NCBI GenBank assembly: GCA_031425655.1
Contig: JANPJS010000177.1
Span: 1 to 29,035, forward strand
Origin: Abditibacteriaceae bacterium
GTDB taxonomy: Bacteria; Armatimonadota; Abditibacteriia; Abditibacteriales; Abditibacteriaceae
Length of the DNA: 29,035 nt
Reading direction: 5' to 3'
Notes under the pieces: generated by a model
Database searches by the model: none
What the model was told of the DNA's origin: nothing
The model's input: only the letters and a program-made list of their open reading frames with translations
Translations under genes and position numbers: made by a program
Shown: positions 5,203 to 20,042 of the stretch, piece after piece
How the letters are laid out: each line of letters starts with the position of its first letter
Position numbering within the stretch: position 1 is the first letter of the stretch

Positions 5203-5310
5203 GCGCTTCTTGAATTTGCCTGCCTAACACACTCCACTGCGTAAGGCGAATTTCAATTTAATAGTTGCTCTGTCGCTGCGCGCGGCGTTGATGCAGGTGA
5301 TGAGATTTCG

Positions 5311-5640
5311 ATGGTAAAATTAGGTGAGATGACTATTGATGAAGTTACTCAAAAGATTGAAAAGGAAATAAACGGTCAGTGGTTGCTCTCCAACGCTCAT
5401 GGTGTTGATTTGCGTCGGTGCCTTGTCAATCCCATTAAGAAAACATACCAAGACATAGCAAGCGACGATTCGATAGAACTTTGGCTCATTCTTGAGGAAA
5501 ATCCAGAAACTCACTCTGGTTACAAAATTGTCATGGACGAAGAAACCGGAGATTTTGGATTAGCAATCATAAGCGACAAAAACGAAGATATTTTTATTGG
5601 ATTCTACGGCACCTTCCTCGAAACATTAGAAGCTATGTAA
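5311..5640 (+). CDS. Small acidic hypothetical protein (accessory, AT-richer than neighbours); alternative start at 5329
   Basis: 109-aa ORF in an otherwise empty gap, protein-like composition, followed by a bidirectional terminator. AGGTGAG precedes the ATG at 5329. Confidence 0.75.
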   Translation: MVKLGEMTIDEVTQKIEKEINGQWLLSNAHGVDLRRCLVNPIKKTYQDIASDDSIELWLILEENPETHSGYKIVMDEETGDFGLAIISDKNEDIFIGFYGTFLETLEAM

Positions 5641-12462: not shown

Positions 12463-13284
12463 TTATTTTCGCGTTGCTGTTTTGACGGCGCTTACTGGAT
12501 ACCATTCCAGCAATCGCACTTGAATTTTCGTGCCTTTGAGCGCCGCTTCAAACCGCTGCGGATTGTCGTTGGCTTTGTCGAATGGATAACGGTAATGATA
12601 AGGAATGGCGATTTTCGGTTTGAAAGCCTTCGCGCCTTGTGCGGCTTCCTGCGGCGTCATGGAGAACGGCAAATTCATCGGCAAAAACGCCAAGTCAATC
12701 TCCCTCAACTTCTTCATTTCGGGCGTGACTTCGGTATCGCCCGCGATGTAAATGCGCTTTCCGCCCAGCGTGAGAATGTAGCCGTTGCCGCGCCCTTTGG
12801 TGTGAAACTTCGCGCCCGGCTTAGGGCCGCGCACGAGGTTATACATCGGCACCGCTTCGAGACTGAAAAGACGAGCGGATTTCCGCTGGCCGTTGGCGAT
12901 TGGAACGCATTTTTCATACAAATCGGTGCCGTATAACTCCGACTTGCCTTTAACTCTCGACAGCATTTCGGTAGCCGCTGCCTTTGGCAAGAAGATGAGC
13001 GAGCCACTTTTGCGTATCTTGGAGATCGCCGGCACATCCAGATGATCGGGATGAATATCGGTAATTAAAACAACGTCGGCTTTTTTGGCGCGCGAGTAAT
13101 CGCCCATTGAAAACGGGTCAACGTGAATCACCAGACCGCGATATTCGATTTGCATCGAAGCGTGCAAAATCGGCGTGATGCGAATTGCGCCGCCTTCTGC
13201 GGCAATCGTCGTCGAAGACGGTGCGGCGTGCGCGCACACAGACAAAGCGCAGAGGACGCTTAAAATGGCCAGCAGTTTTTTCAT
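12463..13284 (-). CDS. Exported MBL-fold metallo-hydrolase
   Basis: Signal peptide, IHVDP, TDIHPDH (HxHxDH variant), YIAGDT, IPYHY. Confidence 0.9.
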
Positions 13285-13815: not shown

Positions 13816-13942
13816 TCACTCATTCACTTTCAGAATGCTGAGAAACGCTTCCTGCGGGATTTCGACGTTTCCGACTTGCTTCATGCGCTTTTTGCCTTCT
13901 TTTTGTTTTTCGAGCAGCTTGTGCTTGCGCGAAATGTCGCCG
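13816..13942 (-). pseudogene. lepA: Duplicated 3'-terminal 127 bp of lepA (att-like direct repeat)
   Basis: 122/127 identical to 15410-15536. Encodes [41 protein letters not shown]. No lepA homology beyond 13942. Confidence 0.95.
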
Positions 13943-13943
13943 T

Positions 13944-14390
13944 TTATTGCGGGAAATACGCCCAGCGCGCCAATCGTGCCAGATATTGTTTCAGCTTTTT
14001 GAAATGCTTTTCGTCTTTTGCCGCGAATTCCGGCGTGGCACAAATCAGAGCATGGGCGGGATTATCGGGCAGTGTCGAATGTTCGTAAATAGGATCGGGC
14101 ACCACGTCAATAGCACGATAAGCGTCCTGTCCATTGTGGCAGGGAACATCATGGATAGCCCGCACTTCGTCGGTAAGAAGCTCTACCACGACGTCCGTTT
14201 GATCCAACAAAGTGTATCGCGGATTATTTTCGCAGAAATGGGCGCGATCAACGGAAATCTTTTTGCTGCGGTCGGAAAAGGCTTGGGAACTGGGTAGTTT
14301 GCGGCCCTGACCATCGCGCTCGTCTCGAAAATTTTCCGGCAAATTTCGCACACGACGATAGAGCCATTCGTCGCCTTGGACTTTTTCCAT
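13944..14390 (-). CDS. Hypothetical protein, possible ADP-ribosyltransferase-fold toxin
   Basis: 148 aa from ATG 14390, 5 nt after the upstream stop, with GAGG upstream. Pattern LYRR..SSQAF.D..ISVD..DVVPDP..NPAHALI. The function call is tentative. Confidence 0.7.
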
Positions 14391-14395
14391 GCGCC

Positions 14396-14953
14396 TTAAT
14401 CCTCGCCAAACATCCACTGCCACATTGCAAGGCGTTCGTTCGTAGTGTTGGCGCTCCCGTCGCCCATTTCTGCGGGGCCGCCCATGCCATTGTCTTGAAT
14501 GTAGTCCATGCCCTCAGGTGAAACGTATACGGTAAGGCTTTTGGGAGCCTGCCACCATTCCAGCACAACCTCGCCCTCTTCGCTGGCAGAAATATGCGGC
14601 TCGTGCCAAACCCAACCTCGATTCCAAACTTCGTCGGACATCATTTGTGTCCAACTAACAGCCTTCAAGAGGGCTGTCGGCATAGGTGCCGCTGCGTCAT
14701 GCCCGTTCCAGTTTTCGCCAAGCCGACGCAACGCGACAATGCTTCCGAGAGTGCGTGCCAAAAGCGTCGCCTGCTTATTTCGCCCGGCTGCGATTCCCTG
14801 GGTCAGAAGCCGCAAACCTGCCATGGACAGAAATTGCTTCTGGCGATTATGGGTAATTTTTAGCACAACGTGGTCGGGCACACGAGTGACTTTCACGCGT
14901 CCGCCACTGGCCCAACGGTCAATAGCCTGCTTGTCCAGCGTAAAAGTGCTCAT
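14396..14953 (-). CDS. Hypothetical protein (NW[N/D]G..A..P motif family), possible antitoxin/partner
   Basis: 185 aa; ATGA overlap with the upstream gene. Motif ENWNGHDAAAP..PHISASEEGEVVLEW..LTVYV. Confidence 0.75.
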   Translation of the reverse strand: MSTFTLDKQAIDRWASGGRVKVTRVPDHVVLKITHNRQKQFLSMAGLRLLTQGIAAGRNKQATLLARTLGSIVALRRLGENWNGHDAAAPMPTALLKAVSWTQMMSDEVWNRGWVWHEPHISASEEGEVVLEWWQAPKSLTVYVSPEGMDYIQDNGMGGPAEMGDGSANTTNERLAMWQWMFGED

Positions 14954-15387
14954 AATTGCTCACCTTCAAAATCACCTACGGAGAAACCATCCACCGTTTC
15001 AATGCGACCACGCCACCAGTCGATTGAAAAATTGGTGTTACTTGCGTAGATCATGACATCTTTGAGGTGAATCATGCGCGGTGGCACATGGCTCTGTTTG
15101 CTTTGTTCCAACTCAGAGGCAATCGGTTCCAGAAATTGGCGCTTGAGTTGTTCTTTTTCTATCGAGTCACCCACATAAATTAGATCGGCCATAGCCTCGA
15201 AATACGCCAAAAGTCCGACCACCTGACCCGTAATAACTGCCCCGCCAACTGTTAAAATGATCGGCAGGTCAGTATCCGAATGCCTGTTAGCAGCTTCAAC
15301 CAAATCCTGCAGAAAGCCATCACAGACAATTGGCTCCTCGCTGCGTTTTTCAGGTGGCATGGCCTCCGCTGTTTTGGTTTCTTCCAT
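14950..15387 (-). CDS. GvpU-like small protein
   Basis: 145 aa, strong RBS AAGGAGG. DGFLQDLV..IILTVGGAVITGQVV..YF..IHLKDV..WWRGRIETVDGFSVG resembles the GvpU family pattern (recalled, not searched). Confidence 0.7.
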   Translation of the reverse strand: MEETKTAEAMPPEKRSEEPIVCDGFLQDLVEAANRHSDTDLPIILTVGGAVITGQVVGLLAYFEAMADLIYVGDSIEKEQLKRQFLEPIASELEQSKQSHVPPRMIHLKDVMIYASNTNFSIDWWRGRIETVDGFSVGDFEGEQL

Positions 15388-15409
15388 TGATTTCCTCCTT
15401 GCTCAGTAT

Positions 15410-17212
15410 TCACTCATTCACTTTCAGAATGCTGAGAAACGCTTCCTGCGGGATTTCGACGTTGCCGACTTGCTTCATGCGCTTTTTGCCTTCTTTTTGC
15501 TTTTCGAGCAACTTGCGCTTGCGCGAAATATCGCCGCCGTAGCATTTGGCGGTCACGTCTTTTCGCATCGCTGACAGGTTGGCCGAAGCGATGATTTTGG
15601 CGCCGATGGCGGCTTGAATGCGAATCTGGAAAAGCTGGCGCGTCAGCAATTCTTTCATTTTGTCGCAGATGATTTTGCTGCGCCCGTAAGCCTGATCGCG
15701 GTGGCAAATAAAGCTGAGCGCGTCCACGATTTCGTTGTTGATGAGAATGTCCACTTTCACAAGGGGCGACTGCTGAAAATCGGTTAACTCATAATCCATC
15801 GAAGCGTAACCGCGCGTGCGACTTTTCAGGCTGTCGAAGAAGTCCATAATCATCTCCGACAGCGGCAGCAAATAGGTGATGGTCACACGCCCGCCGGTCG
15901 AAGAAAATTCCATGTTTTTGTAGATGCCGCGTCGCTCTTCGGACAGTTCGAGGCAGGCGCCGACGTAATCGGGCGGCACGATGATGGTGGTAATCACCAT
16001 CGGCTCTTCGACGCGCTCAGTTTCGTGCGGAAGAGGCATTTTTGCCGGGTTGTCAATCTCGAAAACCTCGCCCGTCACGCGCGTGACGCGATAAATCACA
16101 CTCGGCGCCGTCGCAATGAGCGACAAATTGTATTCACGTTCCAGCCGCTCTTGCACGATGTCCATGTGCAAAAGTCCGAGAAATCCGCAGCGAAAACCAA
16201 AGCCCAGAGCCGGTGAAGAATCAGCCTGATATGTCAGAGAAGCGTCGTTGAGGCGCAGTTTGTCCAAAGCGTCGCGCAAATCCGTAAATTCGTCGGAATT
16301 AATGGGATAAAGGCCGCAAAAGACCATCGGTTTCGGCTCACGATAGCCGCCCAAAGCTTCGCTTGCCTGCCGCGCTGTTTCAGTCACGGTATCGCCGATG
16401 CGAACGTCGGCCACGTCTTTAATGCCCGCGATAATGTAGCCGGTTTCGCCCGCCGCGAGTTCTTTGGCGACGGTCATTTTCGGGCGAAAAACGCCGAGTT
16501 CGGTCAATTCCGCCTTCATGCCGCTGCCCATAAACGTCACGGATTGGCCCGCCTTGAGCGTGCCTTCCATGATGCGAACGTAGACGATAACGCCGCGATA
16601 AGCATCGTAAGTCGAGTCGAAAATCAAGGCTTTGAGTGGCGCACTCCGGTCGCCTTTGGGCGGTGGAATGCGCTCGACGATGGCTTCGAGCAAATCCGGC
16701 ACGCCTTCGCCGGTTTTGCCGCTCACGGTCATCGCACCGTCGGCGGGCAGGCCGACAATTTCTTCGACTTCGATGAGAACGCGCGCCGGATCGGAGTTGG
16801 GCAAATCAATTTTGTTGAGAACCGGAATGATTTCCAAGTCGCCCATGATCGCCAAATGCGCGTTGGCGACGGTTTGCGCTTCGACGCCCTGTGAGGCATC
16901 CACGACGAGCAGCGCGCCTTCGCAAGCGGCAAGGGCGCGCGAAACTTCGTAGGAAAAATCAACGTGGCCGGGCGTGTCAATCAGGTTGAGAATGTATTGC
17001 TGACCGTCGCGCGCGGTGTAATCGAGGCGCACGGCGCTGGCTTTGATGGTGATGCCGCGCTCGCGCTCCAAGTCCATCGAGTCGAGCATTTGCTCTTTCA
17101 TGTCGCGGTCGGCGACGGCGCTGGTCAGTTGAAGAATCCGGTCGGCGAGAGTGCTTTTACCGTGATCAATGTGGGCGATTATCGAAAAATTGCGTATTTG
17201 CTGTTGTTGCAC
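15410..17212 (-). CDS. lepA: Elongation factor 4 (LepA)
   Basis: [69 protein letters not shown] start, 600 aa. Confidence 0.99.
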
Positions 17213-17255: not shown

Positions 17256-17374
17256 TTTGTCTCACGCAAAGACGCCAAGGCGCCAAGATTAAGTTTTCAG
17301 GAAAGGCTTGGTTGAAAATACTTTAATGCTCTTGGCGCTCTTCTTTGCGACTTGGCGTCTTTGCGTGAGACAAA
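17256..17374. repeat. Inverted-repeat element with CGC(A/C)AAG sub-repeats upstream of lepA
   Basis: TTTGTCTCACGCAAAGACGCCAAG (17256-17279) is the perfect reverse complement of 17351-17374. AT-rich imperfect inner stem. Confidence 0.85.
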
Positions 17375-18184: not shown

Positions 18185-19045
18185 TTAAGGAGCGGCGCAA
18201 CTGCCAAAGGGGCCGGTATTTGAACCGGCAGAAACCGGCTTGTGGACATTGAAGCCTTTAGCGGCATCGGAATTGAACTTCTTATCCCAGAAGCGAGGCT
18301 GCGAAGTCATGTCAACTTTGATGTCGGTCGCGGTGGGCGGTGCGCTATTGACCTTGATAGGCAATTTGGCAACAGGATAGAACTTTACATGACCATCGGC
18401 CAGCAACAGATTGCCGCCGCCATTGTGAAGTTCGGTGAGTGCGTCGGTGGAGGTGAACGACGTGCCCGGAGCGGAAGTAAAGAAGAATCCATCGTTGGCT
18501 TTTTCTTCGTCCACCAGCAAAATAATGTTTGCCGAATCAGTCGAGCCGATGGCCGAGTCTTTGATGCCGGCCAGTGCGCAGTTCATGGAATAAGTTGAAC
18601 CGGCCAAGTCTCCATCCTCGGTGGAAGGACAAATGTAGATTTGTGTGCTTTTGATGTAGGGATAAAGCGCACCCTTATCCACTTGAGCGACGATGCTGGT
18701 GAGGGTGTAGGGAGCAGCGGTCGTGCGCATTCCGTCGGTGACACCGTTGGCGCTACCGTTAATCCAGTGGCCACTACTTTCCGTGACATTAGTAGTGTTA
18801 GTCCACTTCTGAAATTGACCTGCGCCGGGGTAGCCCCGGTCGTAATCGGCTGAGTATTGCTGAAACCCCAAGCCCAATTGCTTCATGTTGTTCATGCAGC
18901 TCGTCTTCTTCGCGTTTTCGCGCGCCCGACTAAATGACGGGAAAAGAATAGCTGATAGCAACGCTATGATCGCTATGACGACCAAAAGCTCAATCAGCGT
19001 GAAGCCGCGTTTTTTCGTGTGAGTGTTTGAATAACGGTTCATCAT
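18185..19045 (-). CDS. Prepilin-type N-terminal cleavage/methylation protein with H-X9-DG motif (DUF1559-like)
   Basis: [52 protein letters not shown]. The start was moved from 19132 to ATG 19045 to give a normal short basic leader. Confidence 0.92.
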
Positions 19046-19178
19046 GTCTTTGTCTTGAAACCTATCCTGTTTTTGAAGCGCAGCGCGTGGAACGTCGCGC
19101 GTCGTTGTTCTGTAAACAGACAGGTAGGCCATCAGAAAGTTGCGTGTTGCACATTATGCGCGCGGCCCTGGAATGGAC

Positions 19179-20042
19179 TTACGGCGCCACGCATGAACCG
19201 AATCCTGTGCTGGTGAAATAGCCGATGGGAGGCGCCGGAGGAACCGCGGGCGGCGTATTATTGAAAGGCAAATCCCAGAAACGCGGTGCGCCCGTAGTGC
19301 GGTTTTTGATGGCAGTGTTGCTCTGGCTCAGAGGATAGGATGTATAGGTATAAGCGCGCACATGGCCGTCGGCAAATAGAATGTTGCCCGAATTGAGGTG
19401 ATATTGCGCCATTGCGTCGGTCGAACCTGAAGGCGTAGGTGCGACCGGATTATCAATGTAAAAGAAGCCGTCGTTGCCGTAGGCTTCATCCACCAGCAGA
19501 TTGATGTCGGTGGCGTTTTTCATGCGCGAACGGTTGCTCATGCCTGCAATGGCGCAGTTCATCGAATACGATAAATTCTTGTCGTCCGCTCCGTAAGGGT
19601 CGGACGGGCAAACGTAAGTTTTGGCGCTTTTGACGTAAGGATAGAGCGCACCGCCTTGCACGTCGGCGACATGGGCGGTGCGCTCATCGGGTCTTGAAAC
19701 CAGAAAAAGAGCGCCGTCGGCACCGTCTGCGGGCATGGTGGCCGTGCCATTAGTGCCCTTGACCCAGTGCCCGCCGCTGCCCCATTTCTGAAACTGCCCG
19801 GCGCCGGGATAGCGGCTGTCGGCATCGGCCAGATATTGCTGAAAAGCCAAGCCCATTTGCTTCAAATTGTTCAGGCAAACGGTGCGCTGCCCGCCTTGTT
19901 TGACGCGATCAAGCACGGGAAAAAGCAGCGCGGCCAATAGCGCGATAACGCCGATGACGACGAGCAATTCGGCCAGAGTAAAGCCGAAACGCGAGGCGCG
20001 GCGGCCTGAAATGGGCAATTCGGGAAGATTTTGAAAACGCAT
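19179..20042 (-). CDS. Prepilin-type N-terminal cleavage/methylation protein with H-X9-DG motif (paralog of 18185-19045)
   Basis: FG|FTLAELLVVIGVIALLAALLFP, CLNNLKQMGL, HLNSGNILFADGHV. Confidence 0.92.
   Translation of the reverse strand: MRFQNLPELPISGRRASRFGFTLAELLVVIGVIALLAALLFPVLDRVKQGGQRTVCLNNLKQMGLAFQQYLADADSRYPGAGQFQKWGSGGHWVKGTNGTATMPADGADGALFLVSRPDERTAHVADVQGGALYPYVKSAKTYVCPSDPYGADDKNLSYSMNCAIAGMSNRSRMKNATDINLLVDEAYGNDGFFYIDNPVAPTPSGSTDAMAQYHLNSGNILFADGHVRAYTYTSYPLSQSNTAIKNRTTGAPRFWDLPFNNTPPAVPPAPPIGYFTSTGFGSCVAP

Follow-up and report, generated by a model that had tools for sequence, protein, structure and literature searches.

The stretch of DNA considered here, hereafter the window, comprises 29,035 nucleotides (nt) of an Abditibacteriaceae bacterium of the phylum Armatimonadota (assembly GCA_031425655.1, contig JANPJS010000177.1, positions 1 to 29,035 of the forward strand). 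In it the 3' end of lepA is present twice, once as the end of the intact gene and once as an orphan fragment further downstream, and a small group of genes, the cargo, lies between the two copies. The source assembly is fragmented, of metagenome type and divided into 327 contigs. A preliminary description, made from the letters alone, had reported a 127-bp repeat with a start-to-start spacing of 1594 nt, an insert of 1467 nt holding three open reading frames (ORFs), and the short gaps that separate these parts, and all of these measurements were reproduced. It had gone on to propose an integron-like system of cassette capture anchored in lepA. Here we describe the locus, follow duplicated gene ends, or tails, through the rest of the genome and through the phylum, and weigh the routes by which such a cassette may have been added.

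The lepA locus

The two lepA tails are 96% identical over 127 nt. Identity opens at GGCGA(T/C) within the codons for KCYGGD, closes at the TGA stop codon and is interrupted by five mismatches, and the sequences 3' of the two stop codons are unrelated. Exactly two copies of the tail occur in the whole 5.98-Mb assembly (E values 4e-61 and 4e-54), which excludes a chance match or a dispersed repeat. The insert between them consists of three co-oriented ORFs and carries no mobility genes (Table 1). The last of these, ORF C, stops 1 nt before the orphan tail, which matches the last 39 positions of the LepA_C domain and is read in a different frame from ORF C, with no in-frame fusion; an alternative GTG start at 14423 would lengthen ORF C to 159 aa (13944-14423). 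The HNH endonuclease gene that follows is a further accessory gene, placed ahead of the conserved neighbour of lepA, and is absent at this place from two relatives, G002 and G008. It has no tail copy behind it: a third, degraded tail was rejected, as only 21 nt remain before the next gene, and a 24-nt match of 71% inside the HNH gene was dismissed as chance, not being collinear with the stop codon. A repeat search of the window found no inverted repeat at or beside the lepA tails.

Table 1. Features of the lepA locus in the window (coordinates are positions in the window).
Feature	Coordinates	Strand	Basis or remark
lepA (EF4), intact, 600 aa	15410..17212	-	ORF; Pfam GTP_EFTU, GTP_EFTU_D2, EFG_C, LepA_C
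Resident lepA tail (repeat copy 1), last 41 codons and stop	15410..15536	-	Repeat and alignment
22-nt spacer from lepA stop to ORF A start, with AGGAGG-like ribosome-binding site	15388..15409	-	Sequence
ORF A, GvpU-like, 145 aa	14950..15387	-	Starts 22 nt past lepA stop
ORF B, candidate antitoxin or immunity partner of ORF C, 185 aa	14396..14953	-	4-nt overlap with ORF A
ORF C, candidate toxin, 148 aa	13944..14390	-	Gene-caller start; ADP-ribosyltransferase-like predicted fold
Orphan lepA tail (repeat copy 2), 41 codons and stop	13816..13942	-	LepA_C positions 69-107, E 1.9e-16
HNH endonuclease gene, 161 aa	13306..13791	-	Pfam HNH; starts 24 nt past orphan-tail stop
Metallo-beta-lactamase-fold (MBL-fold) gene, conserved downstream neighbour of lepA in relatives	12463..13284	-	Pfam Lactamase_B_3

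Tail duplications at other genes of the same genome

Duplicated gene ends are not peculiar to lepA, as the preliminary description had supposed. The window's genome (G000) was compared with itself for local direct repeats in which one copy terminates an ORF of 200 aa or more and the other is an orphan ending at an in-frame stop codon. From 236 local direct repeats, 19 pairs with an intact gene upstream and an orphan downstream were obtained, and the mirrored order was found in none. The 19 pairs lie at 18 genes, one of which (on contig C70) has two orphans, and one pair (C277) is doubtful. The resident genes include those for SecA, glutamine synthetase (GlnA), the release factor RF-1, HflX, a pyruvate-carboxylase-like protein, carbamoyl-phosphate synthase, an Mrp/NUBPL ATPase, two DUF1501 proteins and a LarA-like protein, besides lepA itself. 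The 18 pairs at genes other than lepA are found on contigs C29, C34, C45, C46, C66, C70, C102, C108, C141, C235 (in two places), C242, C244, C267, C269, C277 and C306 (loci L073-L089), and their orphans lie 0.5-6.3 kb downstream of the end of the long ORF. In addition glmS, which had been chosen as a control gene, proved to have an orphan tail of its own, which had escaped the megablast screen. Here (C143:45381-49082) a 590-aa ORF starts 34 nt past glmS, and its last ~18 residues are a copy of the GlmS C-terminus, fused in frame.

The cargo enclosed by these pairs includes a DUF3368/PIN gene, a methylase with a partner, NotI with a D12 methylase, type III-like Mod and Res, an HNH gene with a small partner, a UDG-like gene, and many proteins without a family. 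Restriction-modification (RM) systems are present behind three other genes of this genome, in addition to the lepA loci of relatives described below. A general role of the HNH gene as a homing driver was rejected, because an HNH gene lies at or beside the cargo at only 2 of the 18 genes.

A similar scan of 1.2 Mb of the closed genome G305 gave 27 local repeats, among them two tail-type pairs and one control pair. In the clear pair, PIN and PemK-like genes are enclosed by two copies, 2.6 kb apart, of the 107-nt end of an ATP-synthase alpha/beta gene (92.5% identity); the other (45 nt, 100% identical, 15 kb apart) is doubtful. The density of tail duplications is therefore about 3 per Mb in G000, against 1 to 2 in the 1.2 Mb of G305. 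No clear case of a cassette carrying the tail of one gene to another gene was seen in a genome-wide list of 103 distant pairs, which consists mostly of dispersed repeat families and the ends of insertion sequences.

Several repeat families of G000 were recorded in their own right. A dispersed repeat of ~60 nt has more than 30 copies across contigs (for example C298:5270-5332), smaller families are represented at C28:22723, C34:49008, C310:5478 and C318:34556, and stretches of 137-140 nt with 100% identity, found at many contig ends, probably belong to an insertion sequence.

lepA tails in relatives and across the phylum

The expectation that related genomes would hold further lepA tails failed among the nearest relatives and held at a greater distance. 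No second lepA tail was found in 40 relatives, of which 3 belong to the same genus and 21 more to the same family. In G008, of the same family and another genus, the MBL-fold gene directly follows lepA with its single tail, and this represents the uninterrupted target; in G002 one ORF of 277 aa separates the two genes, and G003 shows a rearranged region. The 41-residue tail was then searched for in 400 further genomes, sampled evenly from the phylum, and 12 of them had more than one match. These 12 genomes belong to five families, all different from that of the window, so that lepA has been hit in six families of the phylum overall. In ten of the 12, which are all the cases with both tails on one contig, the extra tail follows lepA in the same orientation at a distance of 0.7-5.8 kb, and G358 and G074 each have two extra tails, that is, arrays. 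The layout of lepA, cargo, tail and further cargo in the window, with variable cargo, is therefore a recurrent one. It is also present in the one- to three-contig genomes G305 (closed, one contig), G139 and G147. In G223 both tail matches are at contig ends. In G271 the extra tail is on another contig, near its end, in an orientation that fits one larger island. Behind lepA, on contig C14 (locus L020, 2871-6634), that genome has a 331-aa ORF and an 877-aa protein with a CHAT domain, and the positions of the two tails suggest an island of at least 9 kb, incomplete in the assembly.

The extra tails begin anywhere from residue 528 to residue 575 of LepA, and not at a single GGD position as had been proposed, while the similarity always ends at the stop codon. 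Families of toxin-antitoxin (TA) or RM systems occur in the cargo of all ten same-contig lepA loci, although some of the matches are weak. RM cargo (an N6_N4 methylase with a 337-aa partner, NotI with a D12-class methylase, an Eco57I-type enzyme) is found in G139, G305, G147 and G073, and a restriction component together with a modification component in the first three. The TA-type cargo comprises PIN, PemK/MazF with a ParD-like protein, DUF433 with DUF5615, ParE, HepT, and a HEPN/AbiV-like protein with a small partner; a T5orf172-helicase protein and some proteins without a family make up other cargo.

A DNA search of 24 genomes of the genus g58 (L043-L072) showed the interval between lepA and folK to be empty in two genomes, and extra tails were present in six. 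The interval is otherwise a mosaic, in which the same few cassettes (a small-protein and HEPN-like pair, NotI with a D12 methylase, and a second RM system) recur in differing orders. A search of titles and abstracts found nothing on lepA as an insertion site. As a separate observation, an ATG belonging to the orphan tail of G139 (locus L009, ~5300-5465, minus strand) immediately follows the methylase stop and opens a 54-codon frame that is almost wholly the LepA C-terminus.

Origin of the cassettes

The differences between paired tails bear on how the cassettes arose. If a tail were duplicated in place and the orphan then decayed freely, 59% of the differing codons would be expected to be non-synonymous. 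Without C277, the pairs of the window's genome have 102 differing codons, of which 76 are synonymous and 26 non-synonymous (25%), a departure from that expectation with P 5e-12. Among the lepA pairs of other genomes a strong synonymous excess is seen in G139 (10 synonymous, 0 non-synonymous), G305 (5/0), G147 (3/0), G160 (10/3) and G358 (13/5), whereas G074 (5/17 and 1/4), G073 (2/5), G208 (3/3) and G393 (2/2, with a stop codon) appear decayed; this division into young and old pairs was made after the data had been seen. All 11 gapless lepA pairs taken together, with the G325 pair excluded for an indel, give 58 synonymous and 40 non-synonymous codons (P 2e-4). Long-term selection on the orphan-tail peptide was considered and rejected, since the orphan tail of the window is out of frame with ORF C and the older orphans have many non-synonymous changes and one stop codon. 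Judged from these sequences, the two tails are functional alleles from very close relatives, and the orphans decay later; because the copies differ as alleles do, the tail would have come in with the incoming DNA and would not have been copied in place. In genus g58 the orphan tail of three genomes is nearest to the lepA tail of its own genome (92.7, 98.7 and 95.3%), ahead of all other species, which points to close donors. RecA recombination falls steeply with sequence divergence, and the closeness of the donors fits this dependence.

Given the many target genes, the lack of recombinases and junction motifs in the sets examined, the allele-like tails and the close donors, we consider it probable that the cassette was added by homologous recombination in the conserved 3' end of lepA with DNA of a close relative. 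The incoming DNA would have been that of a closely related strain, carrying a lepA end and the cargo downstream of it. It may have been a circle of tail and cargo, which would enter by a single RecA-type crossover with the topology described by Campbell, or a linear piece with a homology anchor on one side and an illegitimate joint on the other. Either route would yield the order of gene, tail, cargo and tail without an integrase, and the tail-cargo-tail unit could then pass to any relative with a sufficiently similar lepA end. The cassette could also be lost again by recombination from tail to tail. Since direct repeats invite such deletion, surviving insertions would more often hold addictive cargo, TA and RM systems among it, and in the window the addictive element would be the ORF C toxin restrained by ORF B. 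The polarity is that of an end displacement, the orphan lying downstream of the intact gene and on its strand in all 19 pairs of the genome and in all ten same-contig lepA cases. Of the two ways of mobilisation put forward in the preliminary description, in trans or by homologous recombination, it is thus recombination through the tail that is best supported, and an integrase route is disfavoured by the many targets and the lack of a motif.

Several observations weigh against this reading. It does not account for the first junction of tail and cargo in each cassette. The same type of NotI with D12 methylase lies between lepA tails in g58 and between LarA-like tails in the window's genome, so that a fresh capture event is needed for each target gene. 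Many cassettes are tight, the cargo starting 2-25 nt past the tail stop codon or even overlapping it, and the cargo stop lying within a few nucleotides of the next tail. Random illegitimate joining would not predict such joints without added selection, although the tightness is not universal and gaps reach 336 nt. ORFs on the opposite strand are present in 4 to 5 of 18 intervals, and cargo that is not addictive (a Calx-beta surface protein, pilin-like genes, the UDG-like gene) exists in the window's own genome. The tails of the window themselves, with 4 synonymous and 1 non-synonymous differences (P 0.09), form a pair too small for power, and each tail has derived changes of its own relative to the lepA of the same genus, which fits duplication in place too. 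Finally, no donor, no 1594-nt circle and no empty-site joint was seen among assembled contigs, which break in the tails and give this search low power.

Duplication in place is the first alternative. It would be a true, long duplication of the target, for example through the filling-in of staggered breaks, which the cargo itself may provoke, as has been proposed for RM systems, and divergence would have followed. The tails of the window have common derived states relative to the lepA of the same genus, and each has the other as its nearest match ahead of all relatives, as this origin would have it. At the five sites where they differ, the orphan agrees with the three same-genus genomes twice and the resident tail three times, which singles out neither as the native one. 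The nearness of the g58 orphans to the tails of their own genomes can be read in the same way, RM systems are frequent as cargo, and a published class of RM inserts shows the same anatomy (PMC2853133). The low non-synonymous share set out above, down to none of ten codons in G139, speaks against it. Moreover, most TA toxins in the cargo do not cut DNA, so that the cargo is unlikely as a general driver of duplication. We therefore regard duplication in place as rather unlikely.

Junctions and recombinases

A second alternative is a dedicated process that captures gene-sized cassettes at the stop codons of housekeeping genes, like an integron but without attC sites or a nearby integrase, in which the tail would be the handle of a machine acting in trans. 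The strict polarity of 19 pairs against none, the high density of events, the tight junctions and the recurrence of one RM type behind two genes argue for it. The notion in the preliminary description that the gene tail serves as the recombination site, however, found no support at the junctions, where no k-mer was common to any of five junction windows beyond shuffled controls. Likewise its comparison with an integron array held for the appearance of the arrays and not for the machinery, no integrase, attC or fixed site having been found. The cargo together with a lepA tail is also not a fixed mobile unit, as had been proposed, because relatives of ORFs B and C occur as a pair elsewhere, and none of the 19 loci in question has a lepA tail. 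Such dedicated capture appears very unlikely.

Site-specific integration is the third alternative, either as the remnant of an integrase-bearing island, similar to a cis-mobilizable element (CIME), or through an integrase that acts in trans on a core site within the end of lepA. Integrase-mediated insertion of the Campbell type classically leaves foreign DNA enclosed by direct repeats of a gene's 3' end, and the 127-nt repeats of the lepA end match this pattern. Cassettes separated by tails form arrays in G358 and G074, and the window's genome has six matches to tyrosine recombinases (PF00589) and six to serine recombinases. All 12 matches lie outside the window's contig, in agreement with the earlier finding that the cassette is free of an integrase. 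The closest one lies 4.6 kb past the orphan tail on C70, and the PF00589 matches are on other contigs or 22 kb from other tail loci. No integrase or transposase family was detected in 43 cargo and flanking proteins of the lepA loci of 11 genomes, which cover the ten same-contig loci and the flanks in G271, where the island is incomplete and may be large; nor was any recombinase family detected in 64 proteins of 17 other loci of the window's genome. The variable tail starts leave no fixed att core, the junctions have no motif in common and the tails no inverted repeat, and the target genes, at least 19 in one genome, exceed the recombinases available. For these reasons we hold site-specific integration to be highly improbable. 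The competence genes for ComEC and DprA are present in the genome, but they carry little information, since they are found in most control genomes as well.

An artefact, in which a separate circle with a lepA tail was threaded into the chromosome during assembly, had been named in the preliminary description as a finding that would overturn it; the 327-contig, metagenome-type assembly and the breaks of independently assembled contigs inside both tails would allow one, but the copies differ at five positions and hence are not one collapsed repeat, the depth of the cargo (12.7) equals that of its flanks (11.6-12.2), and the same layout is found in the one- to three-contig genomes named above and at a second gene of the closed G305, so that this explanation is barely credible. 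The contigs in question were assembled from one public run, which contains 93% of the sampled words, and from three others, and none of them was seen to span a whole tail.

With regard to expression, the preliminary description had suggested that the cargo lacks its own promoter and is read from the lepA transcript. No promoter-like site was found upstream of ORF A in the window and no terminator-like site between it and lepA; sites of these kinds are no more numerous than in shuffled sequences. Transcription of the cargo by read-through from lepA is thus plausible and, as a prediction from the sequence, probable. The G+C content of cargo is mostly below that of the resident gene.

The cargo genes of the window

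ORF A matches the NCBIfam model GvpU with an E value of 1e-18 and 67.8 bits, under the cut-off of 70; its precomputed Pfam family is PF28078, and its nearest atlas clusters are GvpU-like (score 0.93). ORF B and ORF C have no family in Pfam, PADLOC, PHROGs or NCBIfam. Neither these two nor ORF A matched a methylase or nuclease family in the four libraries, and the window's cargo therefore lacks the pair of restriction and modification genes seen in G139, G305 and G147.

ORF C has at least 87 small relatives, none of them with a Pfam family, and its invariant residues are L10, Y11, R12, F38, S46, V47, D48, R77, N110, H113 and A114. The AlphaFold2 model of ORF C has a mean predicted local distance difference test score (pLDDT) of 95.3. 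A Foldseek search against the PDB gave nothing at E values up to 0.001. In a structure search with VIA against 48,161 representative chains, nearly all top rows were proteins of the ADP-ribosyltransferase (ART) fold. The best match was a KptA/Tpt1-type chain (Z 8.5, root-mean-square deviation 2.7 A over 86 residues), where a Z near 8 is the noise limit stated for the tool, and it was followed by Tse2, Tpt1, a HopF-type effector, Scabin, TreX, DarT and others with Z of 4-6.6. On these models ORF C is probably a candidate toxin with an ART-like fold.

A relative of ORF B lies directly upstream of a relative of ORF C in 14 of 19 loci from other genomes (L024-L042), and two of the five exceptions are at a contig edge. 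These loci come from Armatimonadota, Chloroflexota, Myxococcota, Planctomycetota and one betaproteobacterium; none of the 19 is near lepA or has a lepA tail, and none has a relative of ORF A. Nearer to the window, ORF C was not found in the three genomes of the same genus and was found in 2 of the 40 relatives. The relatives of ORF B have in common a C-terminal domain of ~110 aa, while their N-termini vary, some of them having a segment that by eye is AbrB-like. A modelled complex of residues 66-185 of ORF B with ORF C reached an interface score (ipSAE) of 0.81 as the median of three runs, against 0.00 for the best control; this value was attained by 116 of 157 solved complexes and by 2 of 215 mismatched pairs, a rough calibration because own alignments were used. 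The runs agreed in at least 90% of contacts, with a partner pLDDT of at least 83, and the predicted interface covers the conserved N-terminal motifs of ORF C. The models thus support ORF B as a predicted binder of ORF C, and gene order and models together indicate that the two are probably a TA-like pair of a new and widespread family, as a candidate.

ART-fold toxins are known from type II pairs such as DarT-DarG, ParT-ParS and RES-Xre. Like these, ORFs B and C form a small two-gene module, in which the candidate toxin has a predicted ART-like fold and the partner is encoded upstream, and ORF B is predicted to cover the conserved face of ORF C. Unlike them, the pair has no sequence match to a family in Pfam, NCBIfam or PADLOC.

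Relation to known systems

The closest published class, described by Furuta, Abe and Kobayashi 2010 (PMC2853133), is that of RM inserts without mobility genes, flanked by long, variable direct target duplications of 30 to more than 400 bp that often overlap the 3' end of a gene. Its authors suggest that such units enter in a cycle, are amplified via the repeats and are then released, and they leave the mechanism open. The small insert, the long duplicated gene end and the absence of mobility genes are common to both, and the insert of the window, being smaller than 20 kb and bounded by a direct duplication of more than 30 bp, falls within the dimensions of that class. The present loci differ from it in that their cargo consists mostly of TA modules and genes without a known family and not of RM systems alone, in that the same gene end has been hit repeatedly across six families of the phylum with arrays as the result, and in that the tail copies differ like alleles.

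The displacement of the C-terminal ends of rhs genes, attributed to recombination of the RecA type through circular intermediates (Jackson et al. 2009, PMC2935791), and that of effector-immunity genes of the type VI secretion system (T6SS), ascribed to illegitimate recombination facilitated by homology (Kirchberger et al. 2017, PMC5361080), offer a second parallel. In both, a conserved stretch provides the homology, a new 3' end is added with its neighbours and the old end is left as a silent downstream orphan; repeated rounds build up arrays, no integrase takes part and exchange is limited to close relatives. There the exchanged ends are variable toxin tips and the orphans are different toxins, whereas here the tail is that of an invariant housekeeping protein, which remains unchanged, and only the cargo downstream of it is new.

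With CIMEs and integrons the present loci have in common the direct repeats of a gene end that leave the gene intact, and compact, mostly co-oriented arrays that lack promoters and, here, are probably read from an upstream one. They differ from both in the many target genes, the absence of a fixed crossover site and the absence of an integrase in or beside the examples seen. As for the hallmarks of integrons, the window's contig has no PF00589 match, and each cassette ends in a fragment of lepA coding sequence without an inverted repeat (no attC model was run). The observation is accordingly another case of a known type of event, neither specific to lepA nor a new kind of mobile element.

Other features of the window

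Two features outside the cassette are recorded. An inverted repeat with 33-nt arms (17256-17288 and 17342-17374, 94% complementary, with a 53-nt loop) lies between a methyltransferase gene and the start of lepA. Two adjacent paralogues with a prepilin-type N-terminal signal (18185-19132 and 19179-20042) resemble by eye the DUF1559-type gene of the C46 cargo.

Implications

Small islets of defence, TA and RM genes in bacterial genomes mostly lack an integrase, and the route by which they entered is seldom visible. Duplicated gene ends are natural scars of that route, and this genome holds about twenty of them; lepA, the end of which is highly conserved, is a target in six families of the phylum. 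The set of loci is therefore suited to measuring the rate at which genes are added by one-sided recombination, and it allows a test of whether addictive cargo protects insertions that would otherwise be unstable.

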